Below, piece by piece: positions 1-24,264 of a DNA stretch of 24,264 nt. The notes beneath the pieces were generated by a model that did not search any database, was not told where the DNA came from, and saw only the letters and a program-made list of their open reading frames with translations. This stretch comes from a virus (Duplodnaviria > Caudoviricetes): positions 1-24,264 of the IMG/VR virus record IMGVR_UViG_3300017759_000079. One strand, written 5' to 3'. The position numbers and the translations under genes were made by a program. The first letter of the stretch is position 1; the number at the start of each line of letters is the position of its first letter.

Positions 1-726
1 ATTCTTAACCAAATAAAGATAAGCATTGACTCTTGCAAATGCCCAAGCAGATGCTGATTTGATCTTTGGGCTGTGAGAAGTATTAAACGCTCCGAGCCCT
101 CTTTGAAATACTGACTTTAGTTGTCCAACTGTAACTCCATAACCAAGTTTGCTTTTGTACCTTTTATTAAAATCATCTGCTTTCTTTTTTAAAGTAGCCT
201 CATCCTTTTTTGAAACCTTTGCTCCTCTACTTGTTGAGGCATCTCCCTTTGCAGTACCTTTGCCTTTTGGATTTCTATTAGGTGTATCGCTTTTTGGTGC
301 TTTCGGACTCTTTTTTATCCCACCTCTTTTGCCTACCTCTGCCAAATCGATTTCTTTTAATTTACTTATCGCCCAATTTACTCCTGCTGAGCCTCCCCAT
401 GCATCCCACATCAATCCTCCGCAACCCTCTGTGTAAGGTACATCTTTGTGTTGTTGATGTCTTTTGAATGAAGCCATGCGAGCAATCGTGTCTCGGCTGA
501 GTTTTGCTTTTCTTGCGATTTGGGCTGCTCTTGTCCACCCCACCCTTGTTCCGCATGATGAGCCATTTTTTTCTTTCCACTCAATAGCTCTCTTTGCATT
601 ATTTACAGCTCCTTGTGGGTAATCGTTGTATGTTTCAAATTCGATTCTCTGACCTGCATTGTACCTTTTATCTTTTTTGATTAAGGCATTAATTTTTCCC
701 AATATAAGTTTAGTTCTTTTATCCAT
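1..726 (-). CDS. Multi-module basic phage protein, 3' end runs off the window; probable virion/internal head protein
   Basis: Missing from the ORF track because there is no stop in the window. ATG at 726 follows the amidase stop, and the frame stays open for 242 codons: MDKRTKLILGKINALIKKDKRYNAGQRIEFETYNDYPQGAVNNAKRAIEWKEKNGSSCGTRVGWTRA...MWDAWGGSAGVNWA..., then a K-rich linker, then ...VFQRGLGAFNTSHSPKIKSASAWAFARVNAYLYLVKN. The last motif resembles DUF5824 (RGxxA...WxxARV), from memory. Confidence 0.8.
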   Translation of the reverse strand, partial: MDKRTKLILGKINALIKKDKRYNAGQRIEFETYNDYPQGAVNNAKRAIEWKEKNGSSCGTRVGWTRAAQIARKAKLSRDTIARMASFKRHQQHKDVPYTEGCGGLMWDAWGGSAGVNWAISKLKEIDLAEVGKRGGIKKSPKAPKSDTPNRNPKGKGTAKGDASTSRGAKVSKKDEATLKKKADDFNKRYKSKLGYGVTVGQLKSVFQRGLGAFNTSHSPKIKSASAWAFARVNAYLYLVKN

Positions 727-727
727 T

Positions 728-1165
728 TTAAAATTGGTTGCTGATCCATTCATATTCTTGTTGAGCATCAAAGCATGGGCATGATTTAGAACTGAAATCA
801 TTGTGTCCATAAACATTTGCCTGTGGGTACATTATTTTTAGATAGCACAACATATCATCCAAAGCCTCTTTTTGCTCATCTGTTCTTGTGTCTTTTGCAA
901 CCCAATCTCCATCTGCACCTCTCTCCGCTTCAACTCCTCCAATGTAACAAATTCCGATGCTATCAAAATTATGTCCTTTAGTGTGAGCACCTGTTTGCTC
1001 AATCGGTCTGCCCTCATGCACTTGACCATCCAATCCAATGACAAAATGGTAGCCGATATCTCGCCACCCTCTTTTCAAATGCCACTTACGTATTGTCTCG
1101 ACGCTTACATCTTTTCCCTCTTGTGTTGCAGAGCAATGTATTATTATCTTCCTGATCTTTCGCAT
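728..1165 (-). CDS. Endolysin, N-acetylmuramoyl-L-alanine amidase (Amidase_2, T7 lysozyme-like)
   Basis: Motifs IIIHCSAT, DIGYHFVI, GAH, SIGICYIGG and GHNDF..KSCPCF match the Zn-amidase His/Tyr/His/Lys/Cys pattern. ATG at 1165 preferred over TTG at 1171. Confidence 0.95.
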   Translation of the reverse strand: MRKIRKIIIHCSATQEGKDVSVETIRKWHLKRGWRDIGYHFVIGLDGQVHEGRPIEQTGAHTKGHNFDSIGICYIGGVEAERGADGDWVAKDTRTDEQKEALDDMLCYLKIMYPQANVYGHNDFSSKSCPCFDAQQEYEWISNQF

Positions 1166-1269
1166 GAGCAATTAGTTTTTAAATTCTCCAAAAATCGATT
1201 CCAACCAAAGTGAAATCTACATTTTTTATCCTCCAACCAATCTGCAAATTTTCTTATTAATTTAATCAT
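1144..1269 (-). CDS. Small basic hypothetical protein (41 aa) in the lysis region
   Basis: MIKLIRKFADWLEDKKCRFHFGWNRFLENLKTNCSCERSGR. ATG at 1269 lies just after the upstream stop at 1271-1273; the track start at 1362 overlaps another ORF. Confidence 0.55.
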   Translation of the reverse strand: MIKLIRKFADWLEDKKCRFHFGWNRFLENLKTNCSCERSGR

Positions 1270-1270
1270 T

Positions 1271-1399
1271 TTAACAATTTTGTGAAGCAGAGGTAGTAGA
1301 ACTATACCAATCATAAATGTCTCCCCATCCATTTGAGCCATTGTTGATCTCTCCACATCCAAACCAACTCACATCATATATCTCTGCTGTCGTGTTCAT
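1271..1399 (-). CDS. Small Trp/Gly-rich peptide (42 aa)
   Basis: Hand-translated MNTTAEIYDVSWFGCGEINNGSNGWGDIYDWYSSTTSASQNC. It has an A-rich start context and fills the gap between its neighbours exactly. Confidence 0.65.
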   Translation of the reverse strand: MNTTAEIYDVSWFGCGEINNGSNGWGDIYDWYSSTTSASQNC

Positions 1400-1405
1400 A
1401 TTTTA

Positions 1406-1561
1406 TTATTTATTTTTTTGATTCATTAAGTACCATTTATTTATTGTGTAACCTATTGTTACGACTAACAACAATAATTTTAGCACCATATCAATGTTTG
1501 TCAAGCTTATTGCAAAACTGCTTATATTCAATCCGTATATTTTTAAATCTGTTAAATTCAT
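1406..1561 (-). CDS. Putative holin / small membrane protein (51 aa)
   Basis: MNLTDLKIYGLNISSFAISLTNIDMVLKLLLLVVTIGYTINKWYLMNQKNK: hydrophobic segment(s) and a basic C-terminus. TAATG overlap with the tail fibre stop; lies upstream of the endolysin. Confidence 0.65.
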   Translation of the reverse strand: MNLTDLKIYGLNISSFAISLTNIDMVLKLLLLVVTIGYTINKWYLMNQKNK

Positions 1562-3003
1562 TATTGTAGTGTCGTTGGATTATATCCTGTTTGTTCTTGA
1601 GTTTTAAATATCTTGTATTTAATTCTAAATTCAACATTATAATTCGGTCTTATTGTTTGGGTGTTTAATGTTCTTGCTCTTAACTGAACTGTGTTTCCTG
1701 ACCTTTGAACAGTCGTTAAGAAATTGTTATTGATCTGCACATTTTCATTGCTTCTCATTAAGTAAGCCCATTTTTTTTGTTCTGCACGATATGTTCCTAA
1801 AGTAACAGCAGCAATTTGTCTGTCATAAACTTCTGCTCCTGATCGATTAAAAAAGCCCAACCATGGGTCTGCATCAGGTCCGACAAAGTTCCCCCTTGTG
1901 GTTGGTGTATAAATGTCTTTATTATCAATGACTAAAATCTCATCAACTAAAACAAATGTATTGTCATTCGGTGCTGTTAAAATAGTATAAGTTTTATATT
2001 CTCCGATTGTCTGAACTCCCCACCAACTCGGCTTGATTCTTACCCATTTATACAACCAATCCTCCATCAATTTTCCATCCTGACTAAAACTTGCGGTTGT
2101 TGCTTGGGTAAAGTTAGGTTTGTCAGGGTTCATGCTACTTAAATTTCCACTTCCGTAATCGCTAAATTGTAAGAAATTTTTATTATCCTGAGTTGTGCCT
2201 GTATAAATCCTTTTTGATGTAAGAGCACCATTAAGTCTGTTTCCTATATTTAATTCATTTGACCTTATAGTGCCATTGACTTCAAGTGGGTACTGTGGGT
2301 CATTAAGCCTAATCCCAAGTTTGCTTGTTGATTTATCCATTAAAACGTTTCCGAACAATCTTGTATTGCCCTGAACATCCAACGGCCTCGATGGTGCTCC
2401 TGTAACATTGACTCCAATCGATCCTGTTGCCTTAATTGTTGCACCTTGAATTTGTGATGTAGATGTAATGTTTCCTGAATTTTGATTCAAGTTTCCACTA
2501 ACTTCCATTCCATCAAAAATAGTTACAGGGTTTTGAAAATTAACTTCATCCGAAAACTCAACGACACCTGTTGTGCCACTATTTGTTTTAGCTAATATAT
2601 GGTCAGTCAATAAGTTATTTTGAATCTCGACATTAAGATCGGTTCTGACATCTATTGCCGATGTAAAAGCTCCGTTGTTGTCTGATCTACCGATAAAAAT
2701 CCCTCTTTCAGGGTTGTCTTGGTTGTCTGAGTTTCCGACAAATTTAATAGCACCTCCATTTACATCCCCTTTAATGAATCTCTCTTGATCATTATAAGTA
2801 AACAATAAATCCCCTGCATCGATTTTTACATCCCCACTTGATTCAATTCCATTAGTTGACCTGCCTACACTTAATGCACTATTATTTCCGACTCCATCCT
2901 GTACCACTACTCTGCCACTTACAGGTATGCCCTGAGTGCTATCAGTAGTCTTTAGCAATCCATCATAAGTATTCCTTATTTGCGCTCCTGTTAGTGTACC
3001 CAT
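1561..3003 (-). CDS. Tail fibre / receptor-binding protein (480 aa)
   Basis: G/N/S/T-rich, with N-terminal MGTLTGAQIRNTYDGLLKTTD and repeated IGVN..P...LDVQG / LGIR...P.YPLEVNG units typical of Bacteroidota phage fibres. Distinct C-terminal globular region. Confidence 0.75.
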   Translation of the reverse strand: MGTLTGAQIRNTYDGLLKTTDSTQGIPVSGRVVVQDGVGNNSALSVGRSTNGIESSGDVKIDAGDLLFTYNDQERFIKGDVNGGAIKFVGNSDNQDNPERGIFIGRSDNNGAFTSAIDVRTDLNVEIQNNLLTDHILAKTNSGTTGVVEFSDEVNFQNPVTIFDGMEVSGNLNQNSGNITSTSQIQGATIKATGSIGVNVTGAPSRPLDVQGNTRLFGNVLMDKSTSKLGIRLNDPQYPLEVNGTIRSNELNIGNRLNGALTSKRIYTGTTQDNKNFLQFSDYGSGNLSSMNPDKPNFTQATTASFSQDGKLMEDWLYKWVRIKPSWWGVQTIGEYKTYTILTAPNDNTFVLVDEILVIDNKDIYTPTTRGNFVGPDADPWLGFFNRSGAEVYDRQIAAVTLGTYRAEQKKWAYLMRSNENVQINNNFLTTVQRSGNTVQLRARTLNTQTIRPNYNVEFRIKYKIFKTQEQTGYNPTTLQ

Positions 3004-3165
3004 TTATACTGTATTTTGATGTTTAGTGTTTTCGTCTGATACCAATCCATTTTCGTATTTTTTTAAAAACCTTTTCAAAAGATCAACATTCTTTTTTTTT
3101 GGTTTGCTGTTTCTTGTTTTCTTTGACTTCAAAATCTCGATTCCATTATTTGCAAAATGATTCAT
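3004..3165 (-). CDS. Small Lys-rich hypothetical protein (53 aa)
   Basis: MNHFANNGIEILKSKKTRNSKPKKKNVDLLKRFLKKYENGLVSDENTKHQNTV. ATGA overlap with the upstream gene; its TAA abuts the next ATG. Confidence 0.65.
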   Translation of the reverse strand: MNHFANNGIEILKSKKTRNSKPKKKNVDLLKRFLKKYENGLVSDENTKHQNTV

Positions 3166-3677
3166 AAAACCCAACCTGTAAAATTAGCATCTCTGTCAGG
3201 GTACATGTCTTCATTTTGATTTTGATTGTACTCAGGAAACTGCTCATTGTTAAAATTCATAAAATCAATAAATCTTCTCGTGTAGAATTGAGCAAAATTT
3301 CTGTGCTTGTCAATCAAAGAATCAACCTCCTCCTTTGTAACCGATTCGCTGTTTTCTGAATTGTGTTTGAAAACTCCTCCGTTTGCCACTTGGTAAGCAG
3401 CAAAAGGTAGGTAATCAACCATTGCATAGTGTATCAACATGTCGACAATGTAATTCTTTAGTAAAGACAAATAAGGGTCTTGCAATCCTGTGCCTCCTCC
3501 TGCTCCATCCAAAATGTCTGCAGAGATTTTATCGTACAACTTGCCACCCAAAAAATTCTGAATGTGAATCTGCTGAGCGATTTTGATGAATTGCAAAAAT
3601 TTATTCACATCTACGTTGCCATCAATGAGTGTGTTTGCTTTTAAATCCTTTGCTGTTATGAATAATGCTGTTGCCAT
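3162..3677 (-). CDS. Probable head-tail adaptor/connector (DUF6712-like), 171 aa
   Basis: Directly downstream of the portal. Helical protein with IKIAQQIHIQNFLGGKLYDKI and YTRRFIDFM...FPEY. Confidence 0.65.
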   Translation of the reverse strand: MATALFITAKDLKANTLIDGNVDVNKFLQFIKIAQQIHIQNFLGGKLYDKISADILDGAGGGTGLQDPYLSLLKNYIVDMLIHYAMVDYLPFAAYQVANGGVFKHNSENSESVTKEEVDSLIDKHRNFAQFYTRRFIDFMNFNNEQFPEYNQNQNEDMYPDRDANFTGWVL

Positions 3678-3687
3678 TTGCTATCTT

Positions 3688-5640
3688 TTATTTTTTGCCT
3701 CCACTCCAATTCGGATGATGCCCACCATTAGGCATATCAACAGGTGCCACAATCGATTCTGCTGTGCCTCTTGGGTTTATATTATACGACTTAGGTATTG
3801 ACCTTGTTCTTTGATAATCATTGAAAGCAGGGCTTGTAATCGTCTTGCTTTTTAATCTGTATAAAACTTTTTTCCAAACATGGTGGCAATATGGTCCTCC
3901 CTTATATTTGAATAAATCGTAAGGTTGTGATTTATGACCGAAATTTGAATTGATCCCCTCTCTGCTTGCTTTGTCAATGTCTTCAATTCTGTAAACTGCA
4001 GGATAGCCCCTTGAATCAAATCGACTCATCATTGTAGAACAGAAATCTCTGCTATCGCTTGATGATTGTTTCTTTTGATGATACTTATATCTAATCTTGT
4101 AAAATGATTTATCTAAGTAACTAAATCCCTTTGGTTTTGGCGTTACATATCCTGCGAGCTTTTGAGCTAAGTTCTTTTTTTCATCCAATAAATAATTAGC
4201 CCAAACTTCATCGTCATACTCTTCGCCATCGCACTCAATCTCATCTACAATCTCCCATTCGTCCAAAATCTCTTCATGCTCTAAATTATTGAGTATAGCT
4301 TTTGAGATGTCCTCTGTCAATTCGACCTGCTCCGACAAATCATGCGATTCGCAAGGCATGTACCAAATTTTATCATCCAATTTATGTTCGTGATATCCCT
4401 CACATCCCATCTCTTTAGCTACTGCGATTGCCTCCTCTTTAGTATCAAATGCACTTCGTCCATCTATTTGTTTTGAAGTTAATTTGACTCCTGTTTCCTC
4501 TTCTCTTGTTTCGCTGTCTATTGTAGTATCAATTTCGACAAACTCAAGTGGTTGAAGAGTCTTAAAATAAAGATTTAATGTAACCTCATTAAAGGCAAGT
4601 ATCTTATCAAAAGCATCAAGTAATAATTCTTGAAATGGGCGAATCACAGTATTGTCCATCAATACACTTGCGACCTTTAATTCATCGGCATTGTTTCCGA
4701 GTCCTGTTTGATCCTTGATTCCCAATAACATAGGCGATGTAATTCTATGCCCTAACATTATTTTGCGAGTACTCTCTGAACTTAGAAACTCATACTGCAA
4801 ATGTGCATCACTTAATTGAACTGCATCAATGCTACTTTGTGAATCTGTATTCTCGTTAAAGCTGAGTATAAATTTGCCTGCGTTTGAGCTGCCGCTGTAC
4901 TTCTCGTAAATTCTCCTTTCAATCAATTCTCTCTCCTCTTCATTCGGTACTCCATTGTTGAAGTTGATTAACATGCTTGGGGCAAGCCCATTTTTTATGT
5001 TAGACAAGTGATAGTTTGAAACCTCCTCCTCTAATTCAGCATATTGCAAACTGCCTTGGTAATCTACAGGCGAAAAGTAATAGTGTCCTGCAACGTAAGG
5101 TTTGATGTATAACAATTCGATTGCCTCATTGCTTGTTCCAAAAGCAGGTATTCTTTGAGGTTCATCCTGAGGTTTGATTTTAGCCCAATCGTGAAAATAG
5201 TAATAGCCCTTGACTTCTCCATCATCGTTTGCCTTTTCAATTGCAATTGTCTCAATAGGTAAGTGCTCAATTTGTGCAATCCTTTTTCGATCCTTTGAGT
5301 AAATTATTTGAACTGCACATTGCCCCATTAGTTTGAGATCATACGCTAATTTGCGAGTGCAATCTTTATTGAACAAAGATAATGCCTCTGCATATTCATT
5401 CGGCTTTTTATTGCTGTCTGTTGCATCTAATCCTTTGCCATAAATCATCTGCGAAATTCCATTGATAATCGCATTGTTTGTTGGGCTTCCTGAATATCTG
5501 TCTAAAAGGTAACTAAAGTATTCATTCTTTGTGCCATAGGTAACCCATGTTTTGTCCTTAGTAACCTTGATTTCAGGTGAAGTATAGTTGCTTAGATTTA
5601 CAACATTAATTTTACCCTTTTCTGTACGTCTTCTGCTCAT
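3688..5640 (-). CDS. Portal protein with C-terminal DUF3721-like and MuF/minor-capsid-like extensions (650 aa)
   Basis: Portal-like core (SPTNNAIIN...IYGKG, YYFSPVDY, NIKNGLAPS, SGSSNAGKF, IMLGHRITSPMLLGI, VIRPFQ) followed by about 260 extra aa containing GCEGYHEH...WYMPCESH, SRDFC and GGPYCHHVW. Confidence 0.85.
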   Translation of the reverse strand: MSRRRTEKGKINVVNLSNYTSPEIKVTKDKTWVTYGTKNEYFSYLLDRYSGSPTNNAIINGISQMIYGKGLDATDSNKKPNEYAEALSLFNKDCTRKLAYDLKLMGQCAVQIIYSKDRKRIAQIEHLPIETIAIEKANDDGEVKGYYYFHDWAKIKPQDEPQRIPAFGTSNEAIELLYIKPYVAGHYYFSPVDYQGSLQYAELEEEVSNYHLSNIKNGLAPSMLINFNNGVPNEEERELIERRIYEKYSGSSNAGKFILSFNENTDSQSSIDAVQLSDAHLQYEFLSSESTRKIMLGHRITSPMLLGIKDQTGLGNNADELKVASVLMDNTVIRPFQELLLDAFDKILAFNEVTLNLYFKTLQPLEFVEIDTTIDSETREEETGVKLTSKQIDGRSAFDTKEEAIAVAKEMGCEGYHEHKLDDKIWYMPCESHDLSEQVELTEDISKAILNNLEHEEILDEWEIVDEIECDGEEYDDEVWANYLLDEKKNLAQKLAGYVTPKPKGFSYLDKSFYKIRYKYHQKKQSSSDSRDFCSTMMSRFDSRGYPAVYRIEDIDKASREGINSNFGHKSQPYDLFKYKGGPYCHHVWKKVLYRLKSKTITSPAFNDYQRTRSIPKSYNINPRGTAESIVAPVDMPNGGHHPNWSGGKK

Positions 5641-6041
5641 AATACAATATAGTCATTTGTGCTTGTTTCTTTTTCAATGTAATTTCCTTTATTGATATTG
5701 TAGGATTTTTCATTGACTTGATTGATTTCCTGATCTGTAACAAAGATCTTGTCTTTGTAAACTACCCTTTTTTTGGGTGGTGTTGAAACATCATTATTTG
5801 TTATCCACAAGCTGTAAGTCATTCCCTCCTGCAATCCTACAGGTTCAAAATTGACTTTAATATAATCTCCATAGCTTTGGGTTGTATAGCTTTGATTTGT
5901 GATGTTTTCTCCTGTTATATCATCCACAATATAAGCTGTGTAATCTTCTGCCCATAAACTGCCCTGTGGTGCCGAAATAAAATAAAACTCTTGTTGTCTT
6001 ATTCCTCCGTTACCATCATCGCTTGTTTTTAATAGTATCAT
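5637..6041 (-). CDS. Hypothetical, probably structural, protein (134 aa)
   Basis: Beta-rich ORF with ATGA overlap to the portal; first gene after a late-promoter motif. Confidence 0.7.
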   Translation of the reverse strand: MILLKTSDDGNGGIRQQEFYFISAPQGSLWAEDYTAYIVDDITGENITNQSYTTQSYGDYIKVNFEPVGLQEGMTYSLWITNNDVSTPPKKRVVYKDKIFVTDQEINQVNEKSYNINKGNYIEKETSTNDYIVL

Positions 6042-6045
6042 ATAT

Positions 6046-6072
6046 GTATAACGCTATTTGTATGAATTTTTG
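6046..6072 (-). promoter_or_regulatory. Putative late promoter CAA-N16-CGTTATAC
   Basis: CACAA AAATTCATACAAATAG CGTTATAC ATAT ATG; one of five copies with identical spacing. Confidence 0.75.
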
Positions 6073-6083
6073 TGAAATAATTT

Positions 6084-6115
6084 AAAAAAAAAAGAGCCAC
6101 ATTCTTGTAGCTCCC
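6084..6115 (-). terminator. Intrinsic terminator after the capsid/tail-tube unit
   Basis: GAGCTACA-AGAA-TGTGGCTC stem-loop followed by T10. Confidence 0.85.
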
Positions 6116-6139
6116 TTTCAACTCGACTAAAATCCAATT

Positions 6140-6676
6140 TTAGATATCTGTAATGTCAGATGTAGAAACTGTGATTCCAACTCCTGTAATTCCTCCTGAT
6201 AAGAAATTAGCAGGTTTTTTCTCCATTCCTTGAAGCGTTAAAGTGTAACCGCTGAGGTCTCCCATTGCAGCTCCACTCACAACTGTGCCTCCATTTACGT
6301 CCGCGCCAAACTCACTTCCAACTAAAAAGAAATTGCCATTGTTATCTTCAACCACAACGTGTGGTCTTGCAACTGCAATTACTGCCAATTGGTCGTTTGA
6401 TTCAGGCGATAGCTTTTTTAATGTTAAATTAACTATTTGATCATAAAAAGTAGTGCCATTCTCTCTGCTTGATGTGATGGTTTGTTCTAATGAAGAGTTG
6501 CCTTTCAATACATATTTGTAAGCTGTCGGCGATCCTGCTACTGCTGTAATTTCATCACTTGTAGATGCGTAAGTAATATCTCCTAACGTACCGAAGTCAA
6601 TGAAATAAACAGCCTGCAACCCACCTACGCTATCCTTGCAAGGTTCTGTTCTCCCTTTTGTTATTAAGCATGCCAT
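6140..6676 (-). CDS. Major structural protein, probable tail tube (178 aa)
   Basis: MACLITKGRTEPCKDSVGGLQAVYF...SRENGTTFYDQ...GDLSGYTLTLQGME. Acidic and beta-rich, co-transcribed with the capsid gene. Tail-tube role is inferred. Confidence 0.65.
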   Translation of the reverse strand: MACLITKGRTEPCKDSVGGLQAVYFIDFGTLGDITYASTSDEITAVAGSPTAYKYVLKGNSSLEQTITSSRENGTTFYDQIVNLTLKKLSPESNDQLAVIAVARPHVVVEDNNGNFFLVGSEFGADVNGGTVVSGAAMGDLSGYTLTLQGMEKKPANFLSGGITGVGITVSTSDITDI

Positions 6677-6705
6677 TTGTTATATTTTTTATTTGTTATG
6701 GATTT

Positions 6706-6730
6706 GTGGGTCAGAAAAAATCCAACCCAC
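6706..6730 (-). other. Intergenic 10-bp RNA hairpin without U-tract
   Basis: GTGGGTTGGA-TTTTT-TCTGACCCAC between the capsid stop and the tail-tube start. Confidence 0.6.
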
Positions 6731-6746
6731 TCTCTCCGAATTATTA

Positions 6747-7694
6747 TTAAGCTCCGTAGTAAACAATGTCAGATGCAACACCATACTGCACACCTGCTGT
6801 GTAACGCATAATGAATCTAACATTTTTGCTTCCGTCCAAATCTGCCATGTCCAACACTCGCACCTCATTGTGATCGTTGAGTAATCCTGTGCCGAAAAAT
6901 AGGTTAGATTTTTGAGCAGCTACCATTCTGTTGTCTGCAAGTCCATTTGCAACAACAATAGAAACTCCATCAAAAGAAAGCCCTGCTCCTCCATTGTACC
7001 ACATTGTACCTTGTGCACCGATACCTGAGTTGTTTTCTCCGTTTACGAAACTTCCGAATCCACCCAAAGCACGAACATAAGCACGAGCGATATTTTGAGA
7101 AACATATATTAGCATGTCTTCTTTATTGTATAGTGATGAAGGTATTGCATCAACTACTTTTCCAAGCTCTCCAATTACGTTGCTTGATGTAACTGTTGCA
7201 GGAGTCTCGACATGACCACCTGCTGATGCGAATGCTGCATCTGCAAATAGAGTAGAGAATCCATCAAAAGTTCCTGCTCCTGCTGATCCTGACCAAATAG
7301 ATGTCTCAGTTGCTGATGCTACATCTGCAGAGATTCTTGCGATAAAGAAATCGCTGAATTTTGGAGGTAGCGAGTCGTGTGCTGAAAAGCCCATTGACTC
7401 AGCCTCCCAATCGTCCTGAAATGGAGTCTTGCAAAGCTCTAAGTTCACTTGTAACTCTTTTGGTTCAAGTATTCTTTCAGTTAGATCAACTGATCCTGTG
7501 TCTGTAAATCCGCAAGTTGCATTTGCGATAGCAGAAGTGTAATCAACTTTTTTGATCACTTCTTTTAATTTGATGTTTGGCTTAACTGTGATTAGTTGGT
7601 TAGCCAATGTGTTACCACTTAATAGAGCCGCTCCGATATATTCTCCTGCAAACTGCCCTGCATAAGTAGATGTAATAGATACTGATGTTGCCAT
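6747..7694 (-). CDS. Major capsid protein (315 aa)
   Basis: Size, and position after protease and scaffold. MATSVSITSTYAGQFAG..., LTERILEPKELQVNLELCK and C-terminal VRFIMRYTAGVQYG are consistent with an HK97 fold. Confidence 0.85.
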   Translation of the reverse strand: MATSVSITSTYAGQFAGEYIGAALLSGNTLANQLITVKPNIKLKEVIKKVDYTSAIANATCGFTDTGSVDLTERILEPKELQVNLELCKTPFQDDWEAESMGFSAHDSLPPKFSDFFIARISADVASATETSIWSGSAGAGTFDGFSTLFADAAFASAGGHVETPATVTSSNVIGELGKVVDAIPSSLYNKEDMLIYVSQNIARAYVRALGGFGSFVNGENNSGIGAQGTMWYNGGAGLSFDGVSIVVANGLADNRMVAAQKSNLFFGTGLLNDHNEVRVLDMADLDGSKNVRFIMRYTAGVQYGVASDIVYYGA

Positions 7695-7699
7695 TTTTA

Positions 7700-8362
7700 T
7701 TATTGTTTAATGTTTAAAATTTTGCTCACTATTCTATCGTAAGCGGTTATATTCTTGTTAGTGTTAAATTTGAATTTAGCCTTGAAAGCACTCTCCTCTT
7801 TTGGTGCATGCTTCAATGGTTCTGTTGCAGGTTTTGAAAGCTCTTCTTTCAACTCTTCTTGCTCACTAACCTCTTCGTTAGTAGCATCCGACTCGACTTG
7901 CTCATTCATAACCTCTGCCTCAACCTCTTCTGTCTGCTCACTCATTTTCTCCTCTGTGATAGTCATTTTTTCAATCATTCCCTTGATCTCTTCTAAGGCA
8001 GTATAAAATTCTTCTTTTGAAACGTATTCCATTTTTTCTTCCTTTGGTTCATCCTCCAAATTAGCTTCGACCTCTTCCTCTTGCTGAACTTCCTTTTCAG
8101 CCTCTTCCTTTTCAGCCTCTTCTTGTTCTCCAATCATAGCAATAATGCCATCCTCTTCGACAATTAGTTTTTTGCCATCTTCCATTTTATACTCTCCTTT
8201 GGGTAGAGCGACCTTGTCATCCTCTGTAACAATAAAAACCGACTCTCCTTTTGCAAAGCTATCTGCTTCAACAATAGTTCCGTTGTCTAATTTCATTTGT
8301 TCCAAATTTACTTGCAAGCCCAAAACTTCTTTGACTTTGTTTAGTGTTGTTGTTGCACTCAT
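7700..8362 (-). CDS. Capsid scaffolding protein (220 aa)
   Basis: Very Glu-rich coiled-coil protein just upstream of the capsid gene; N-terminal LDNGT...ALPKGEYKMEDG domain. Confidence 0.75.
   Translation of the reverse strand: MSATTTLNKVKEVLGLQVNLEQMKLDNGTIVEADSFAKGESVFIVTEDDKVALPKGEYKMEDGKKLIVEEDGIIAMIGEQEEAEKEEAEKEVQQEEEVEANLEDEPKEEKMEYVSKEEFYTALEEIKGMIEKMTITEEKMSEQTEEVEAEVMNEQVESDATNEEVSEQEELKEELSKPATEPLKHAPKEESAFKAKFKFNTNKNITAYDRIVSKILNIKQ
8089..8122. repeat. 15-bp tandem duplication in the scaffold gene (EEAEK x2)
   Basis: cttccttttcagcct repeated twice, plus a partial copy. Confidence 0.7.
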
Positions 8363-8377
8363 TTTTCTGATTTATTT

Positions 8378-8404
8378 AATTAACGATTTTAATTTTAAAA
8401 ATTG
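8378..8404 (-). promoter_or_regulatory. Putative late promoter CAA-N16-CGTTAATT (scaffold/capsid unit)
   Basis: CGCAA TTTTTAAAATTAAAAT CGTTAATT, 15 nt upstream of the ATG at 8362. Confidence 0.7.
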
Positions 8405-8412
8405 CGTTTAAG

Positions 8413-9142: not shown

Positions 9143-9146
9143 AATT

Positions 9147-9173: not shown

Positions 9174-9176
9174 TGT

Positions 9177-16327: not shown

Positions 16328-16585
16328 TTAAAATTTGTTTTTAATTTCCTTGCCCTCGATTGATTCCTTTTCTTTTATGAATGCTAACATTGTAAAACAA
16401 AAATTTACATTTAATTTAGTGACCTTTTCAATTCTTGTAATGTCTCCCTTACTGAGTGCAAAGAGTGATTGATACCATCCCCATTTGTTTGAGAAGCCGC
16501 TTTGAGCGCTTGTTGTATTTCCCTCTGTTTGCCCTTGTCCAAATAAGTCATCATAGCGGTCGAGCAATCTATCCCTAAACGATAA
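16328..16585 (-). CDS. -1 frameshifted C-terminal extension of the tail assembly chaperone (gpGT-like)
   Basis: The -1 frame is open from the T9 slippery run: LSFRDRLLDRYDDLFG...FSNKWGWYQSLFALSKGDI...CFTMLAFIKEK. The fusion product would be 251 aa. Confidence 0.8.
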   Translation of the reverse strand, partial: LSFRDRLLDRYDDLFGQGQTEGNTTSAQSGFSNKWGWYQSLFALSKGDITRIEKVTKLNVNFCFTMLAFIKEKESIEGKEIKNKF

Positions 16586-17082
16586 AAAAAAACTATTGAT
16601 GAAACTACTGCATCCAAAGGCATTTTGAGCATAACATCATGAAACTCCTCTCCATGATAATCGTAAAGAATGTATTTGTCTTTTAGTTTCTGCTTGATAG
16701 GGCGATATAGCACAGCCATAGCTTTGTGAACTTGCTGAATGTCTCCCAAATGATTATCGATGTCAATATACTCTCCGAAAGTCAAATCCTCTAAATTAGG
16801 CACAAACCCAAACTCACTCTCTCCCATTTTAAATGTCCTTACAAGTGGAGGTGTTTTTTGTATGATATCATAAATCTTTGTGGCGATCCTTTCAAAATCG
16901 ACTAACTTCATGTTGTTAGCAACATCATAAGAAACATTGCAAAAGATTTCAATTAATTTACAAGTTATAAATCTTTCCGACTCTTCGACATCTTCGTTTG
17001 CTTTTATGATCCTTTCGTATTTTTGATATTGCTCCAATGTAATATCACTCAAAGAATCAGGCACATTGATTTTTATTTCCAT
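16411..17082 (-). CDS. Tail assembly chaperone (gpG-like), 223 aa
   Basis: IPDSLSDITLEQYQ-like N-terminus, FGFVPNLEDLTFGEYIDID, AMAVLYRP; contains the GTT TTT TTT slippery site. Confidence 0.78.
   Translation of the reverse strand: MEIKINVPDSLSDITLEQYQKYERIIKANEDVEESERFITCKLIEIFCNVSYDVANNMKLVDFERIATKIYDIIQKTPPLVRTFKMGESEFGFVPNLEDLTFGEYIDIDNHLGDIQQVHKAMAVLYRPIKQKLKDKYILYDYHGEEFHDVMLKMPLDAVVSSIVFFYRLGIDCSTAMMTYLDKGKQREIQQALKAASQTNGDGINHSLHSVRETLQELKRSLN
16584..16593 (-). promoter_or_regulatory. Programmed -1 ribosomal frameshift slippery site (G-T9)
   Basis: ATA GTT TTT TTT TAT contains a correctly phased X XXY YYZ heptamer (T TTT TTT). Confidence 0.8.
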
Positions 17083-17088
17083 ATATAT

Positions 17089-17115
17089 GTATAACGCTAT
17101 TTTAAAAATTATTTG
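17089..17115 (-). promoter_or_regulatory. Putative late promoter CAA-N16-CGTTATAC (tail operon)
   Basis: TACAA ATAATTTTTAAAATAG CGTTATAC ATATAT ATG. Confidence 0.75.
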
Positions 17116-17129
17116 TAAATCTAAGTAAT

Positions 17130-17160
17130 AAAAAAAAGAGGCACATTAATGCACCTCCCT
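17130..17160 (-). terminator. Intrinsic terminator closing the small-gene island
   Basis: GAGGTGCA-TTAA-TGTGCCTC stem-loop followed by T8. Confidence 0.85.
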
Positions 17161-17185
17161 TTCAATTATAATAATAAAAAACAAT

Positions 17186-17422
17186 TTACTTGCTAATAAA
17201 TTTAGCGAGCTCCTTATATTTTTTTTGTATGAATTTTTTTTCACAAGCAACCTCATCAAAGGTTAGCTGAACAATACTTGGCAAATCCCTCATCAAATTG
17301 TAAGCATTAAAGGTAAGCAATCTGCCATCCTCTAATTCAAAACAAACCTCTCCATTTTTACCTCCCCACATTGAGATTGTATTGTCAATATATATGTCCT
17401 CTAAAATATCTCTTTCAGTCAT
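17186..17422 (-). CDS. Hypothetical protein (78 aa)
   Basis: ORF with ATGA coupling to the upstream ORF. Confidence 0.7.
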   Translation of the reverse strand: MTERDILEDIYIDNTISMWGGKNGEVCFELEDGRLLTFNAYNLMRDLPSIVQLTFDEVACEKKFIQKKYKELAKFISK

Positions 17423-17580
17423 TTTATGTTGTTTATTGTTGATCTAATCTCCATAGCTTTATTTTCGTAAGCCCTGTAGACCTCGCTTGATTCTCTTGTC
17501 ATTCCATTATGATTAAAAACTCCTATCATATTGTCAAAAAACTTTAATTCCTTTTTTAGATCGTCTAATTGTGTCCTCAT
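17419..17580 (-). CDS. Hypothetical protein (53 aa)
   Basis: MRTQLDDLKKELKFFDNMIGVFNHNGMTRESSEVYRAYENKAMEIRSTINNIK; A-rich start. Confidence 0.7.
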   Translation of the reverse strand: MRTQLDDLKKELKFFDNMIGVFNHNGMTRESSEVYRAYENKAMEIRSTINNIK

Positions 17581-17600
17581 TTTTTTTGTAAATTATAAAC

Positions 17601-17738
17601 TTATATTTTAAATTTATTTGCAACCTCTCGAATCTCTGCCTTGTCATCCTGATCAAGCCCATCTGTTTTATTCGCATACATCCTTAGAACATAATGAACA
17701 AAGGTGCAATCATTTTCTGTTAGCTTTATATTTCTCAT
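17601..17738 (-). CDS. Hypothetical protein (45 aa)
   Basis: MRNIKLTENDCTFVHYVLRMYANKTDGLDQDDKAEIREVANKFKI; ATGA coupling. Confidence 0.7.
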   Translation of the reverse strand: MRNIKLTENDCTFVHYVLRMYANKTDGLDQDDKAEIREVANKFKI

Positions 17739-17914
17739 TTGATTAGATTTAAGCATAACTCTTTAGCAACATAGTTGATATGCTTTTGAGTAGTCATTGA
17801 CCAATAGCCGAGTTGGTTTAAATTATCTCCATCAATAGTAGCAACGTGTGTTGAGTAACTCCAAACCTGATTCCCTTGTATTCTTAAATTCTGTTTGTAT
17901 CTTTTAAGTGTCAT
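17735..17914 (-). CDS. Small conserved-looking phage protein (59 aa) with SYxTxVA...WSxTTxKH motif
   Basis: MTLKRYKQNLRIQGNQVWSYSTHVATIDGDNLNQLGYWSMTTQKHINYVAKELCLNLIK. Confidence 0.75.
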   Translation of the reverse strand: MTLKRYKQNLRIQGNQVWSYSTHVATIDGDNLNQLGYWSMTTQKHINYVAKELCLNLIK

Positions 17915-17921
17915 TTTATTT

Positions 17922-18077
17922 TTATTTTAAGTTAATTAAGTGAAATTCCTGACCATTGTCAAAAAGCATCATTCCATTTCTGATTGCTACAACTTTGACC
18001 ATCTCTGTGATTTTTTTTCCGAATGGAGTTTCTCTCTGTAATTTGAACTGATCTCCGATTTTTACTTTTGTATTCAT
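17922..18077 (-). CDS. Hypothetical protein (51 aa), possibly an SH3-like barrel
   Basis: MNTKVKIGDQFKLQRETPFGKKITEMVKVVAIRNGMMLFDNGQEFHLINLK; first gene after an early promoter. Confidence 0.7.
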   Translation of the reverse strand: MNTKVKIGDQFKLQRETPFGKKITEMVKVVAIRNGMMLFDNGQEFHLINLK

Positions 18078-18094
18078 GTCTATTTTGTTATCAA

Positions 18095-18140
18095 TTATAG
18101 TACAAAGATATCAAATAATTTTAATAACACAAGCTTTTTT
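18095..18140. repeat. 46-bp direct repeat, copy 1 (copy 2 at 23566-23611)
   Basis: 42 of 46 positions identical by manual alignment; contains the early promoter and operator. Confidence 0.9.
18103..18132 (-). promoter_or_regulatory. Bacteroidota primary-sigma (early) promoter
   Basis: TTG-N19-TATCTTTG matches the -33 (T)TTG / -7 TAnnTTTG consensus. Confidence 0.85.
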
Positions 18141-18150
18141 GTATTTTTTT

Positions 18151-18429
18151 TTAGTAATTATATACGACTCTGCTATTTGCTAAAGTTTGAATCACTTGCT
18201 CCATGTTACCTTTTATCCTACCACACAAAGGCACACATTCAGAAACGACTTCTGTACCTGCCTTGATCTTCTTGTTTTTGTTTTTGAAGTCCTGATCCAA
18301 AACCTCAACTCTTCTGCCTGTATATCCCATTGTCTCTCTGTCTGCCTCATCCATTTTGATTGAGCCATAAAACTTTCCGTTGAGGTATATATCTTTGTGA
18401 AATCCTATGATGTTAAATTCTGCTTTCAT
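18151..18429 (-). CDS. Hypothetical protein (92 aa)
   Basis: ORF track; ATG follows a hairpin and an A-rich leader. Confidence 0.7.
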   Translation of the reverse strand: MKAEFNIIGFHKDIYLNGKFYGSIKMDEADRETMGYTGRRVEVLDQDFKNKNKKIKAGTEVVSECVPLCGRIKGNMEQVIQTLANSRVVYNY

Positions 18430-18443
18430 GATTTAGATTTTAA

Positions 18444-18461
18444 AGGGGGATTGCTCCCCCT
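18444..18461 (-). other. GC-rich hairpin with GCAA tetraloop (weak terminator or processing/stability element)
   Basis: AGGGGGA-GCAA-TCCCCCT followed by only a short T run. Confidence 0.65.
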
Positions 18462-18468
18462 GTTTTAT

Positions 18469-18699
18469 TTATATTAGTTTAGCGTGTCGTAAGCTACCAA
18501 ATTCATCCCATTTTCTTGCCATTGAAGTTGTGTTTGTAAAAATATCATCTCCCCAATGTACAGGTTCGTGTTCTACTTCAATTCCCTTTGCATGCTTATC
18601 TTCAAAAATACCTGTTACAATTCCTTTAACCATTAAACCTGTAACAATGATTTCAACTTCTTTTCCGATTAGATTTTGATTTACTTCTGATGTTTTCAT
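18469..18699 (-). CDS. Hypothetical protein (76 aa), small beta-barrel-like
   Basis: Start moved to ATG 18699 (MKTSEVNQNLIGKEVEIIV), downstream of the promoter. Confidence 0.7.
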   Translation of the reverse strand: MKTSEVNQNLIGKEVEIIVTGLMVKGIVTGIFEDKHAKGIEVEHEPVHWGDDIFTNTTSMARKWDEFGSLRHAKLI

Positions 18700-18724
18700 T
18701 TTATTTTGTTTTATTATTATGATA

Positions 18725-18755
18725 CAAATATAAAACACATAATTGAGTTATCAAA
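18725..18755 (-). promoter_or_regulatory. Bacteroidota primary-sigma (early) promoter
   Basis: TTTG-N19-TATATTTG, an exact consensus match. Confidence 0.85.
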
Positions 18756-18794
18756 GTTTTTTAATAACTTTTTTATTTTAAGAAGATAATTTGT

Positions 18795-19949
18795 TTATCT
18801 GATAGCGTAAGTACCATAATTAGGTTTGCCCAATTTATTTACAATCGAATATCTCAGGGCATCAAGCGAATGGTTGAAAGCATCAATCGGCTTATTTGTT
18901 AGCTGTCCATTCTTGTCCTCTATGTATTTGTAATTTCTCAACTCCTTAATCATATTAACGCTGTCAGTCGTAACATGCAATCTGTATCTCCTGATCATAT
19001 CGATTCCGATATTGATACTGCCCTTTGCTGTTTTCTTTGCATTGAATCCCATTCTGAATATCTCCTCAATAGATTTCGGCTCTGCTGAGTCGCACCAAAT
19101 CTCATCTCTCCGATCTAATCCCAAACGCTTTAGCTCGTTTCCGATATCCTGATTTGTCATTCCTGTTCTGTATAACAACTCTCTGCAGTACATATCATCC
19201 CCCTCAATGAATGTTTCAACCAAAGCTGTGCTGTCATTTGAGAAACCAAAATCCAAACCTCTGCCAATTAATTTTGCAGATTCAGGTATGCTGTCTATTG
19301 TTTGAAATTTAAAAACAAGTGAGCGACTTGCTCCCCTCTCTCCCAAACCATAAACCCTCCAATAGTTATCGTCAATGTCTTTTAGCCTTTCAATCTCATT
19401 GACAAGCGATTGCTCTAAAAATGGATTGTCTTTGTATGTTGTTTGATAAAACTCAACATCCTCTCTTGTTAGCACCTTGTCATAAATCCAATGGTATTCG
19501 TCTGATGGATTGTAGTCAATTATTATTTGCTCAGTTGTTCTAAACAATAATTGTTGCCAATCTTCAAAGTATAATTCGTTACACTCATTGACAAAAAGCA
19601 ACTCCCTTTTGCGACCTCTAATTTTAGTCGGTTGATCCAATGAAATAAATTCAAATCTATTGCCATTTAAAAAATACTCGTGTGTAGATTTTCTGTGATA
19701 CTCTTCTCTGTATAAATTGTATGACCTTAGAATCTCAAAGAAATCTCGCATCACAGTTGAACGAACTGCAGGAAATGTCTTGCGAACTATTGTGATTGTT
19801 TTCTTTTTGTTGTTTACTGAATAAGAAAAAATTAACCAAAGCAGGATGTTGTATGTCTTGCCTGATCTTGTACCCCCCTGTTCAACTATTATTTTTTTTG
19901 TTGCCCTTTGGAGATGCTTGTAAACTTTATTGGTCTGTATCTCCCTCAT
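18795..19949 (-). CDS. terL: Terminase large subunit, PBSX/SPP1-like (Terminase_3)
   Basis: Walker A GGTRSGKT, Walker B LLFVNE, DYNP, TYKDNPFL, nuclease GLDFGF..D, DSAEP and NHSLDALRY. Confidence 0.96.
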   Translation of the reverse strand: MREIQTNKVYKHLQRATKKIIVEQGGTRSGKTYNILLWLIFSYSVNNKKKTITIVRKTFPAVRSTVMRDFFEILRSYNLYREEYHRKSTHEYFLNGNRFEFISLDQPTKIRGRKRELLFVNECNELYFEDWQQLLFRTTEQIIIDYNPSDEYHWIYDKVLTREDVEFYQTTYKDNPFLEQSLVNEIERLKDIDDNYWRVYGLGERGASRSLVFKFQTIDSIPESAKLIGRGLDFGFSNDSTALVETFIEGDDMYCRELLYRTGMTNQDIGNELKRLGLDRRDEIWCDSAEPKSIEEIFRMGFNAKKTAKGSINIGIDMIRRYRLHVTTDSVNMIKELRNYKYIEDKNGQLTNKPIDAFNHSLDALRYSIVNKLGKPNYGTYAIR

Positions 19950-20280: not shown

Positions 20281-21000
20281 TTACAGGTTAAGTTTAATTG
20301 TGAACTCATTTGCTTTTCTCTTTACTTGTGAGATCATTGATGGGTATAATTTTATTAAATCCTTTATTGCTTTTTTTTCGATTTCAATTGTTCTATAGTC
20401 TTTGCATCCTCCATCTTTTCCCCAATGATCATTCTCCCAATGTAGATAACGGATTCCCAAAATCCCTCCCTTATCTCTAATGTGTCGTAAGCAGATTTCG
20501 TAATCTTCTTTGACTACAAAATTTTCGTCAAAATAGTATTCTCCATCATTTATCATTCCCATTAGTGACGCTGTTACATAGGTTCTTGTGAGTATAGGTT
20601 TGTAAGGGTAACTGCCTCGTGGACTGCTCTCTGTTCTTGTACCCCATATTTTAAAACCCATCTGCTCTGTGAGATCAAAGTATTTTAAAAACTCCTCTGC
20701 CCAAAATCCCTCATCTCTGACCTCAATTTTTTTTGTTTTTCTCTCATCTAAAAAATTATAGCCAACGTGTTTTGCATCATCATCTAACATCACAACGTAT
20801 TGCTCATCTGTATTTTTAAGAATCCAATTTCTTGTCGGTGTAATTCCCCTGACCTCTTTCGGCACACAAACTATGTTTTTCACTAATCCCTTGTATTGGT
20901 GGTACTCACTTTCAGGAATAAAAAACGTACATATATTAGGCAGGATTTTATTTGTACTTGTTAGCCCTGCTCTCCCTTTACTTGGTACTGCTATTAACAT
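20281..21000 (-). CDS. GT-A glycosyltransferase of the TET/JBP-associated (TAGT/GREB1-like) family
   Basis: IAVPSKGR, GI..TRNWIL, VMLDDD (DxD), KEDYE.CL and GGC...R motifs. Confidence 0.8.
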   Translation of the reverse strand: MLIAVPSKGRAGLTSTNKILPNICTFFIPESEYHQYKGLVKNIVCVPKEVRGITPTRNWILKNTDEQYVVMLDDDAKHVGYNFLDERKTKKIEVRDEGFWAEEFLKYFDLTEQMGFKIWGTRTESSPRGSYPYKPILTRTYVTASLMGMINDGEYYFDENFVVKEDYEICLRHIRDKGGILGIRYLHWENDHWGKDGGCKDYRTIEIEKKAIKDLIKLYPSMISQVKRKANEFTIKLNL

Positions 21001-21604
21001 CTAATCTCTTTTTAAAATCATCCCACCATAAAACACGCTCCAAACTAACTGCATCAAAGGCACTCCCTTTTTTATATCCTCCTCGTCTGACCATCTTTAA
21101 CTGCAACATCTCTTTCAACTCCTCCCAATCAACGCTGTTGGGTTCTGCCATTATCAAAATGTATTCTTTCGGTGGCTCTAATTGAACGGACTGAGGCAAC
21201 TCAATTTCATCCTCATCCTCCATTTTATCGATCTGATCATCAATTGGTAAATCCAATCCCCAATCCTCCAACAAATTTGCATCCCAATCATTTGCGAGTA
21301 TATCCCAATCCCATTCTCCGAAACCGACATTGTCTTTTATCACAAACTCTCTCTCCTGCTCTTCTGTCAGTTCATCTGCTTGAATTATGTAAACCTCTTT
21401 CAATCCTGCCTGCACACTTGCTTTGTATCGCATATTGCCTCCCAAAATTACATTGTCTTTGTTCACAACAATGGGTCGTATCTTTAACATCTCAGGAAAC
21501 TGCTTGATGCTATCAACGAGCTTTCCGAACTTAAAATCCTTGATCAAACGTGGATTGTCGACATTTGATGTAATAGAATTTATTTTGACTTTTTTAATGT
21601 TCAT
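20978..21604 (-). CDS. ParB/Srx-like N-terminal domain protein with a short unknown C-terminal domain (208 aa)
   Basis: NPR.I...F.KLVDSIKQFPEML..RPIVV, ILGGNMRYKA and FVIKDN..FGEWDWD.L. Confidence 0.88.
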   Translation of the reverse strand: MNIKKVKINSITSNVDNPRLIKDFKFGKLVDSIKQFPEMLKIRPIVVNKDNVILGGNMRYKASVQAGLKEVYIIQADELTEEQEREFVIKDNVGFGEWDWDILANDWDANLLEDWGLDLPIDDQIDKMEDEDEIELPQSVQLEPPKEYILIMAEPNSVDWEELKEMLQLKMVRRGGYKKGSAFDAVSLERVLWWDDFKKRLDVNSSTK

Positions 21605-23394: not shown

Positions 23395-23544
23395 TTATTC
23401 TGCAAAATATGTTCCATCTGTTTTAACGTAGAAAGCTTGACTCCCCTTTTCGACTAAAACCAAGTCGCCTGTAGCGTGAACATATTCAAAACCTTTGTTT
23501 TCTAATCTTGTTACTGTACTTTGTTGTTGTGATGTCATTACCAT
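23395..23544 (-). CDS. Hypothetical protein (49 aa)
   Basis: MVMTSQQQSTVTRLENKGFEYVHATGDLVLVEKGSQAFYVKTDGTYFAE; first gene after an early promoter. Confidence 0.68.
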   Translation of the reverse strand: MVMTSQQQSTVTRLENKGFEYVHATGDLVLVEKGSQAFYVKTDGTYFAE

Positions 23545-23565
23545 TTTATTGTCTTTTAGAATTAT

Positions 23566-23611
23566 TTATAGTACAAAGATATTAAACTTTTTTAATAACA
23601 CAAGCTTTTTT
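23566..23611. repeat. 46-bp direct repeat, copy 2
   Basis: 42/46 identical to 18095-18140. Confidence 0.9.
23574..23603 (-). promoter_or_regulatory. Bacteroidota primary-sigma (early) promoter
   Basis: TTG-N19-TATCTTTG. Confidence 0.85.
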
Positions 23612-23615
23612 TTGT

Positions 23616-23918
23616 TTATCTTACAAATTGCTCATATTTTTTTACAATAATTTTTAAATCTTCATTCTCTTTTTCTGCTTTTCTTGCTCTCAAAATAGCT
23701 CTGTTTTTTTCCAACCTGAACTCACTCATTGATCGGTTATACATTTTTCTGTCTGTTTGCAAATTGCTAACGTAAAAAGCAATCTCTGTAATTGCCCTTG
23801 ACATTTGTTCCAATTTGTCTGTCTTCTTTTTTTTAAGAGCAGACAAGACAAGAGCACCAAGCAACTCCATGTTGCCAAAGTACTCCATGTCTTTTAAGTT
23901 CTCAATTTTAGGATTCAT
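23616..23918 (-). CDS. Hypothetical helical/coiled-coil protein (100 aa)
   Basis: Start moved to ATG 23918 (MNPKIENLKDMEYF); C-terminal KNRAILRARKAE coiled coil. Confidence 0.72.
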   Translation of the reverse strand: MNPKIENLKDMEYFGNMELLGALVLSALKKKKTDKLEQMSRAITEIAFYVSNLQTDRKMYNRSMSEFRLEKNRAILRARKAEKENEDLKIIVKKYEQFVR

Positions 23919-24072
23919 TTGAAATCTCCTCAATCATGATCTCTTGCTTTTCTAACTCTTGCACCAAAACATCAAAAAGATATTCTGCTGCATCAAGTTT
24001 TTCTTTGTAGAAATCAATATCAAACTTTGTGTCTTTGATCTTTGTTTTTAAAATTTCGATTTTTGCTTTCAT
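23908..24072 (-). CDS. Hypothetical coiled-coil protein (54 aa)
   Basis: MKAKIEILKTKIKDTKFDIDFYKEKLDAAEYLFDVLVQELEKQEIMIEEISNES. Confidence 0.68.
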   Translation of the reverse strand: MKAKIEILKTKIKDTKFDIDFYKEKLDAAEYLFDVLVQELEKQEIMIEEISNES

Positions 24073-24090
24073 GTTATTTATATTTAATTA

Positions 24091-24264
24091 TTAAATTGTT
24101 TCAGTTTCTACTGCTTCCAAAGTGAAAATCCCATTATCTCCACTAAACTGAATTGTATCATGCTCAATTCTTATACTACCCCCCTCGTGCATTTCTATAT
24201 CCCAAAAGATTTCTGAGTGGTCGTGTTCTATCCAATCCCAAAGTTTATCCTCTAACTCTGATTG
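24091..24264 (-). CDS. Hypothetical acidic protein, 5' end outside the window
   Basis: Open frame ...QSELEDKLWDWIEHDHSEIFWDIEMHEGGSIRIEHDTIQFSGDNGIFTLEAVETETI, stop at 24091-24093. Confidence 0.6.
   Translation of the reverse strand, partial: QSELEDKLWDWIEHDHSEIFWDIEMHEGGSIRIEHDTIQFSGDNGIFTLEAVETETI

Follow-up and report, generated by a model that had tools for sequence, protein, structure and literature searches.

A gene for a distant MjaI-family nuclease occurred together with loss of CTAG and CCAG/CTGG from the genome of a tailed phage (Caudoviricetes), of which 24,264 bases (positions 1 to 24,264 of IMG/VR record IMGVR_UViG_3300017759_000079) were analyzed and are here called the window. 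Given zero copies of these words, the nuclease gene, and no methylase found, the enzyme would probably cut unprotected foreign DNA at CTAG and CCAG/CTGG, with the phage itself spared because the words are absent from its own DNA. With somewhat less assurance, we propose that a widespread aquatic phage clade carries this methylase-free nuclease and that self is known solely by the missing words, the target having been widened to the non-palindromic CYAG/CTRG and renarrowed several times; other missing-word sets may mark more such nucleases.

Words missing from the window

Counts are written as observed/expected, and the baseline for the window was a second-order Markov model unless a codon shuffle is named. 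CCAG, CTGG, CCGG, CTAG, CCCG, and CGGG were each present 0 times in the window and were its only zero-count 4-mers, while the Markov expectations were about 100 for CCAG/CTGG, 35 sites for CTAG, 9 for CCGG, and 23 for CCCG/CGGG. The codon-shuffle null (300 shuffles within amino acid over the 35 genes of the window) gave expectations of 72.0, 44.0, 8.5, and 17.9 for the same four classes, with lowest values of 52, 25, 3, and 8, respectively. The total absence of these six words had been noticed by eye in a sequence-only reading of the window, and the counts confirmed it, together with its remarks that NCT-GGN codon pairs were never used (GCT/TCT/ACT/CCT-GGN: 0) while NCA-GGN pairs were (GCA-GGN: 33; TCA-GGN: 15; ACA-GGN: 42) and that CCAA, TCGG, GATC, and CCTG/CAGG were plentiful. 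CCTG/CAGG, the mirror word, was in fact enriched (191 vs 141 expected). GGCC, which the same reading had listed as occurring, did have two copies, but its near-absence (2/20) had been overlooked. Further words, likewise overlooked there, were near-absent (GGTGA, 1/21; CCTTC, 2/31; GGGAC, 1/15; CACTG, 3/24; AATATT, 2/22) or absent (GAATTC, CATATG, and CTTAAG, all 0), and CATG was halved (49/82).

CpG was low overall in the window (ratio 0.52), which is what a mutational or repair bias without selection could appeal to; bias of this kind leads to depletion, not to zero, and the exact zeros, the enriched mirror word, and the CCAG kept in sister phages leave this explanation with next to no probability. 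Selection, as the sequence-only reading had proposed, was supported by the zeros and by the co-occurrence described below.

The six words also numbered 0 in the 6,320 and 887 bases past the window ends, read from near-identical contigs: contig G006 covered window positions 1–19577 with 7 differences in 17,694 bases compared (99.96%) and added the 6,320 bases, and contig L081 extended the other end. The two ends were joined by a single contig from another assembly, from which a circle of 30,648 bases is deduced; the window plus both flanks covered this circle, with 0 CTAG and 0 CCAG/CTGG. L081 and G006 overlapped at 93.9% only, and strain variants therefore exist there.

The MjaI-family nuclease gene

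The nuclease gene lay 2.5–3.1 kb past the left end of the window, and two more assemblies bridged the window sequence and this gene. It had an SSB-like gene on one side, a DnaB-like helicase gene on the other, and a terminator-like hairpin directly ahead. Its GC content was 29%, against 36% for the window, and a similar hairpin was seen by eye in gene-free relatives; the AT-rich gene and the shared hairpin suggest that the nuclease gene was inserted later.

The 211-aa product was placed in the MjaI family by three lines of evidence: (i) PF09568 (RE_MjaI) was carried by 19/19 homologues (precomputed) and matched directly in 16/20 alignment members; (ii) the Atlas gave 0.97 for features and, for the predicted structure, template-modeling (TM) scores of 0.72–0.81 to MjaI clusters; and (iii) hhalign gave a probability of 96.9% to a cellular MjaI-family member (23% in the profile alignment), which adjoined an N4/N6 methylase-like gene. 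Residues E106, D130, D136, Q150, and K152 were invariant in 244/244 copies. The predicted model (predicted local distance difference test score, 94) placed E106, D136, and Q150-x-K152 on neighbouring strands or next to them, and the D...QIK motif was shared with the cellular member; the PD-(D/E)XK-type catalytic motif is thus intact, with presumptive roles for its residues. The ratio of nonsynonymous to synonymous substitution rates (dN/dS) was 0.014–0.244 in 16/16 pairs, indicating purifying selection. Foldseek on the model gave no match at E ≤ 0.001, and the best VIA rows, for Vsr, BsaWI, and further nucleases of the class, tied at a middling Z of 7.0–7.8 (root-mean-square deviation 4.2 over 119 for Vsr and 3.9 over 136 for BsaWI), a range that common arrangements can reach. 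A tblastn search of the nuclease against 50,697 phage records returned no match, and no cultured phage matched the nuclease or three distant relatives. On a separate viral contig (L630), which had CTAG at 0/26 and CCAG at 66/101, a tandem pair of MjaI-related nuclease genes preceded a single methylase-like gene.

Co-occurrence of the nuclease gene and word loss

All scans together yielded 247 nuclease loci with 244 full-length copies; 20 loci were dropped as too short, leaving 224 informative. CTAG was absent from 221/224 and both CTAG and CCAG/CTGG from 206/224. Pooled over the first 82 loci, the counts were 2/2,447 for CTAG, 13/3,700 for CCAG/CTGG, 25/846 for CCGG, and 1,803/1,912 for CCCG/CGGG, and the co-occurrence held across phages of 24–48% GC. 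Most residual sites formed clusters, either within short segments or at the ends of contigs, as recombinant or chimeric pieces would. L342 (6 CCAG/CTGG and 3 CTAG) was discarded as a counter-example, all its sites falling past the point where it ceases to match the phage.

The genome comparison was applied to 39 genomes, 68–100% complete: 11 with the nuclease (10 chosen for it) and 28 without. Both words were absent in 11/11 genomes with the nuclease, while among the 28 without it, 2 lacked CCAG, 4 lacked CTAG, and 1 lacked both. The eleventh carrier, G020, had been picked by its capsid gene; of 38 contigs chosen on the basis of genes other than the nuclease, it was the only one with a PF09568 match, and it had 0/115 and 0/62 for the two words. 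The nearest terminase relatives of the window were gene-free and kept CCAG (85/132 and 89/133). On the trees of terminase, capsid, and helicase, the carriers occupied some five separate places, and the independent pairs pointed in the same direction (TerL, 4/4; capsid, 4.7/5; helicase, 2.8/3), with none opposite. Compared with an 89–93% relative, the phage had gained 0 new CTAG/CCAG/CTGG words where 10 were expected. Word loss thus followed the nuclease gene, gene-free sisters keeping CCAG, which supports, for CTAG and CCAG/CTGG, the option of the phage's own nuclease among those offered by the sequence-only reading.

The phage's own base modifier had been named there as well, and the window does contain a cassette of a ParB-N protein and a TET-associated glycosyltransferase (TAGT) that might act at the words and drive their loss. 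Both words were, however, absent in 1/76 informative loci with a 72–100% identical glycosyltransferase, that one being a close relative, and the cassette is a very improbable cause. Phosphorothioate modification was also rejected: the motifs listed in the parts of PMC12914056 and PMC11931770 that were consulted (C*AG, C*CA, C*CGG, NCTC, and others) did not include CCAG. The main texts of three marine methylome papers (PMC8919816, PMC12570018, and PMC9516812), with one supplement of PMC8919816, contained no CCAG/CTGG/CAGG, and PMC4081073 gave no whole-word match.

Target words of the putative nuclease

The sequence-only reading had drawn CCAG, CTGG, CCGG, and CTAG together as one degenerate word, CYRG, with asymmetric CCVG plus CTAG as the alternative. 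The alternative failed, CCCG being below 15% of expectation in 4/104 informative nuclease loci only. Of the single word, CTAG and CCAG/CTGG stood, while CCGG was not well supported: it was normal in one carrier, L553 (31/33, with CCAG at 0/56), about half-normal in another, G055 (25/60), and almost lacking from 10 near-complete genomes that had no nuclease gene. Since CCGG persists in some carriers, CTAG plus CCAG/CTGG (CYAG/CTRG) is likely to be the target, with CCGG weak or uncut.

A symmetric dimer that reads full CYRG, cutting CCGG weakly or meeting it shielded by host methylation, would fit three observations: CCGG was below 15% of expectation in 50/57 informative nuclease loci, the residual rates in the first 82 loci were graded (CTAG, 0.08%; CCAG, 0.35%; CCGG, 3%), and a Polaribacter metagenome-assembled genome (MAG) is described with CCGG methylation (PMC12570018, seen in part). 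Besides L553 and the 10 gene-free genomes, it is opposed by G055, whose 25 CCGG were evenly spread although its nuclease hardly differed (dN 0.002) from the one in L335, where CCGG was 1/27; such a dimer is accordingly unlikely. An enzyme that is perhaps a monomer, cutting CTAG and nicking CCAG, belongs to the CYAG/CTRG reading.

The loss of CCGG and CCCG was independent of the nuclease gene in sister phages (the nuclease-free G040 had CCGG at 0/22 and CCCG at 1/41), while that of CTAG and CCAG was not. The scarcity of CCGG, CCCG, and GGCC probably reflects host restriction acting on the lineage, and the depletion of the window's remaining words is likely due to host defence. Across 662 protein clusters, no clean gene association with CATG, GATC, CCCG, or CCGG loss was found. 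In the nuclease tree, CCAG returned on three or more branches while CTAG stayed at zero; no residue cleanly separated CCAG-keeping from CCAG-free enzymes, changes in the KENH stretch being a weak lead.

Search for a protecting methylase

PF01555, PF00145, and PF05869 had no match in G000, G006, and G007, and a Pfam scan of 34 window and 17 flanking open reading frames (ORFs) found no methylase, although one of unknown fold might escape such a scan. The two PHROG labels of DNA methyltransferase in the window were borne by the ParB-N protein and by the head protease. The cognate methyltransferase that a type II restriction-modification system has in the same genome was thus not found in these scans, and the phage's own genome was free of the putative site over the whole inferred circle, as in PacI-type protection.

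Evidence weighed against the proposed reading

Several observations weigh against a phage-borne nuclease as the cause of the word loss. (i) The argument draws on sequence and genome footprint, from which cutting and expression are predicted; the gene lies outside the window, and near-identical assemblies are the ground for placing it in the window's own strain; and the 211-aa query by itself had no Pfam match. (ii) Some other carriers had methylase-like matches in other parts of their genomes (PF01555 in 5 of 13 and PF00145 in 3 of 13). (iii) The nuclease loci were redundant, 244 loci forming 61 groups at 92% identity, and the independent pairs were too few for p<0.05. (iv) CCAG was kept in 18/224 informative nuclease loci. 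(v) Both words were gone, with no gene found, in G010 (81% complete) and fragments L349, L374, L375, and L378; several capsid-selected fragments (L011–L017) that also lacked both words were set aside. (vi) In the sister phages of the window, CTAG was low beforehand (4/40 and 11/45), so host restriction may have prepared the ground. (vii) CCAG/CTGG was lost alone, with CTAG normal, in G025 (2/106), L094–L103, L161, L193, L198, L201, L218, and L224, where the gene was not found or coverage was incomplete; another CCAG pressure must therefore exist.

Some of these observations would suit a stack of host restriction systems that removed all the words, the nuclease being a passenger or acquired after site loss. 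Besides the gene-free losses of both words, each relative had its own missing set (CATG, GATC, CCTG, and CGCG), CCAG and CTAG were separable in some, and MjaI-family genes occurred in 3/301 genomes of the sampled order, two of them beside a methylase-like gene. Such a stack leaves unexplained the contrast of 206/224 with 1/28, the repeated match on three trees, and the purifying selection on the nuclease, though prior depletion may have eased uptake; it is improbable, and as sole cause it was dropped for CTAG and CCAG once the co-occurrence with the nuclease was found.

Proposed mode of action

During lytic growth, the nuclease gene would be expressed along with the replication genes; the enzyme would cut or nick unmethylated DNA at CTAG and CCAG/CTGG, its target having presumably widened from the CTAG of the family; new sites arising by mutation in the phage would be purged. 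The enzyme is likely used on host or rival DNA. Candidate-host DNA (347 kb from 16 genomes) had 16.8 CTAG plus 47.2 CCAG/CTGG per 10 kb, and the widening would therefore nearly quadruple the sites.

The main use is proposed to be breaking the host chromosome: candidate-host DNA, which has some 64 sites in every 10 kb, would be cut if not protected by methylation, and host-genome degradation is described as a common lytic strategy (10.1101/2025.11.05.686725, seen in part). Use of an enzyme of the same specificity chiefly against phages and plasmids that co-infect or reside in the cell is possible but less favoured: gene-free relatives carried dozens to >100 target sites per genome, the clustered-site segments in carriers L284, L309, and G054 suggest exchange with such relatives, and the phage had few nucleotide-salvage genes.

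Missing restriction sites are usually read as a record of host defence and a guide to the host, while the strongest signal here followed a phage gene. The proposed enzyme would offer a route to destroy host or rival DNA without modified bases or a methylase, paid for by recoding of the entire genome, and CYAG/CTRG would be a candidate new restriction specificity. Pairs of sister enzymes for which different targets are predicted (L563 vs L607 and L560 vs L580) would permit a study of how specificity widens and narrows; L620 and L609 likewise differed in footprint. If the reading is true, other missing-word sets (CCAG alone, CATG, and CCTG) may mark further phage nucleases, and enzyme specificities would be readable directly from phage genomes.

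Genome, likely host, and other features

The window represented 79% of the genome, about 30.6 kb, of a small marine tailed phage, and every gene in it lay on the minus strand; it encoded an amidase, a portal, a head protease, a tape measure, a terminase, the ParB-N plus TAGT glycosyltransferase pair, and an exonuclease. No tyrosine integrase was found in the 33 records searched. The only cultured match of the capsid candidate was Nonlabens phage P12024S/L at 31.5% identity (P12024S belongs to Inhavirus). Of 16 co-binned loci, 7 were in MAGs labelled Flavobacteriales, Flavobacteriaceae, or its genera, which makes Flavobacteria the likely host; the rest were in unrelated bins. Coordinates are collected in Table 1.

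Table 1. Positions of the features discussed (window positions unless a contig is named)
Feature	Position	Strand	Remark
Absence of CTAG and CCAG/CTGG, also of CCGG and CCCG/CGGG; near-absence of GGCC, GGTGA, CCTTC, GGGAC, and CASTG	1..24264	.	Counts
MjaI-family nuclease, 211 aa	G006:C1:3226-3861 = L258:3226-3861 = L259:10001-10636	-	Outside the window
Probable major capsid protein	6747..7694	-	Relatives' marker; labelled from gene position and a weak PHROG match
Terminase large subunit	18795..19946	-	Tree marker for nuclease and word loss
ParB-N protein and TAGT (PF20691)	20281..21604	-	Tested as cause, rejected; lies in the slot beside the terminase
Intergenic repeat, first copy	18083-18151		69 bases
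Intergenic repeat, second copy	23554-23622		69 bases
Gene of 163–164 aa in the SSB–helicase slot	L388:18021-18512		Copy in G010
Cluster 10 gene	L258:65-553		Small, nuclease-like
Tandem MjaI-related nuclease genes and methylase-like gene	L630:9402-11825		Viral contig
Slot beside the terminase in a relative	L347:9011-13599		Also L373, L344, G011, and G016
Dam-type adenine methylase (PF05869)	L082:3000-3416		Amid small genes beside the terminase

In G010 and L349–L351, the slot between the SSB-like and helicase genes held a 163–164-aa gene; its Atlas neighbours were unnamed viral clusters, one named restriction-endonuclease-like, and CCAG was absent in 3/4 carriers, with G010, whose nuclease-like copy has 164 aa, also lacking CTAG, CCTG, and CATG. 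This gene may encode a second self-sparing nuclease. Cluster 10, another conserved gene, small and nuclease-like, lay at a similar position and was usually absent where the MjaI-type gene was present, and the window's phage carried both; CATG was zero in most cluster 10 carriers and also in genomes without the gene (17/21 vs 6/18). CCTG/CAGG was lost in other lineages (L129, L159, L164, L194, L204, L217, and L242), mostly together with CATG (L164 being an exception), and the two losses formally mirror those of CTAG plus CCAG.

The slot beside the terminase had varied gene content among relatives and looks like a swappable DNA-modification locus; in relatives such as L347, the slot genes presumably resemble FolE/QueE/QueD of the 7-deazaguanine pathway. 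The Dam-type methylase gene of L082, the 89–93% relative mentioned above, had no counterpart beside the terminase in the window. The two copies of the intergenic repeat were 81% alike, stood just upstream of small genes, and are possibly early promoters.

Comparison with known systems

MjaI is described as CTAG-specific and active (PMC2615612, seen in part), and its family is classed as Type IIP PD-(D/E)XK (PMC2441816, seen in part). The phage enzyme resembles the MjaI/MthZI Type IIP systems (PF09568; CTAG) in family, nuclease motif, and the CTAG missing from 221/224 loci; unlike them, it is phage-borne and distant in sequence, no methylase was found, and its footprint includes CCAG/CTGG. In cyanophage S-SM2, a canonical solo MjaI-type gene occurred with CTAG at 0/37, and no methylase was annotated in the 24.5 kb round the gene; there, CCAG stood at 174/161, while the present phages, of about 30 kb and with a distant enzyme, have also lost CCAG/CTGG and hence do not show a footprint limited to CTAG. 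Two cyanophages with an adjacent methylase retained some CTAG (5/42 and 9/45).

PacI has an 8-base site and a different fold. On sequence grounds, the phage nuclease is predicted to work like this type of solitary enzyme, within the MjaI family, and not as a restriction-modification system: protection comes through the absent site and not through methylation, although PacI is cellular and in the phage 4-base words have been purged genome-wide, coding positions included. T4 protects its own DNA by modified cytosine, not by site absence. T4 endonuclease II (DenA), described as starting host DNA degradation (10.1101/2025.11.05.686725) and as a GIY-YIG type (PMC2764454; both seen in part), is like the phage nuclease in its use against host DNA, as proposed here, and unlike it in type. 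Classical restriction-site avoidance likely explains CCGG, CCCG, GGCC, GGTGA, CCTTC, GGGAC, CASTG, and several 6-mer palindromes, whereas the loss of CTAG and CCAG follows the phage gene and not the lineage.

Within the literature covered, which was seen in part and did not extend to REBASE or most subscription papers, no methylase-free phage MjaI-type nuclease and no CYAG specificity were found. Protection by site absence, as in PacI (a solitary endonuclease whose host is without its sites; PMC3488263, seen in part), and phage nucleases that degrade host DNA (10.1101/2025.11.05.686725) are already known; new are the distant MjaI-family clade in phages of about 30 kb and its widened and reversible footprint.

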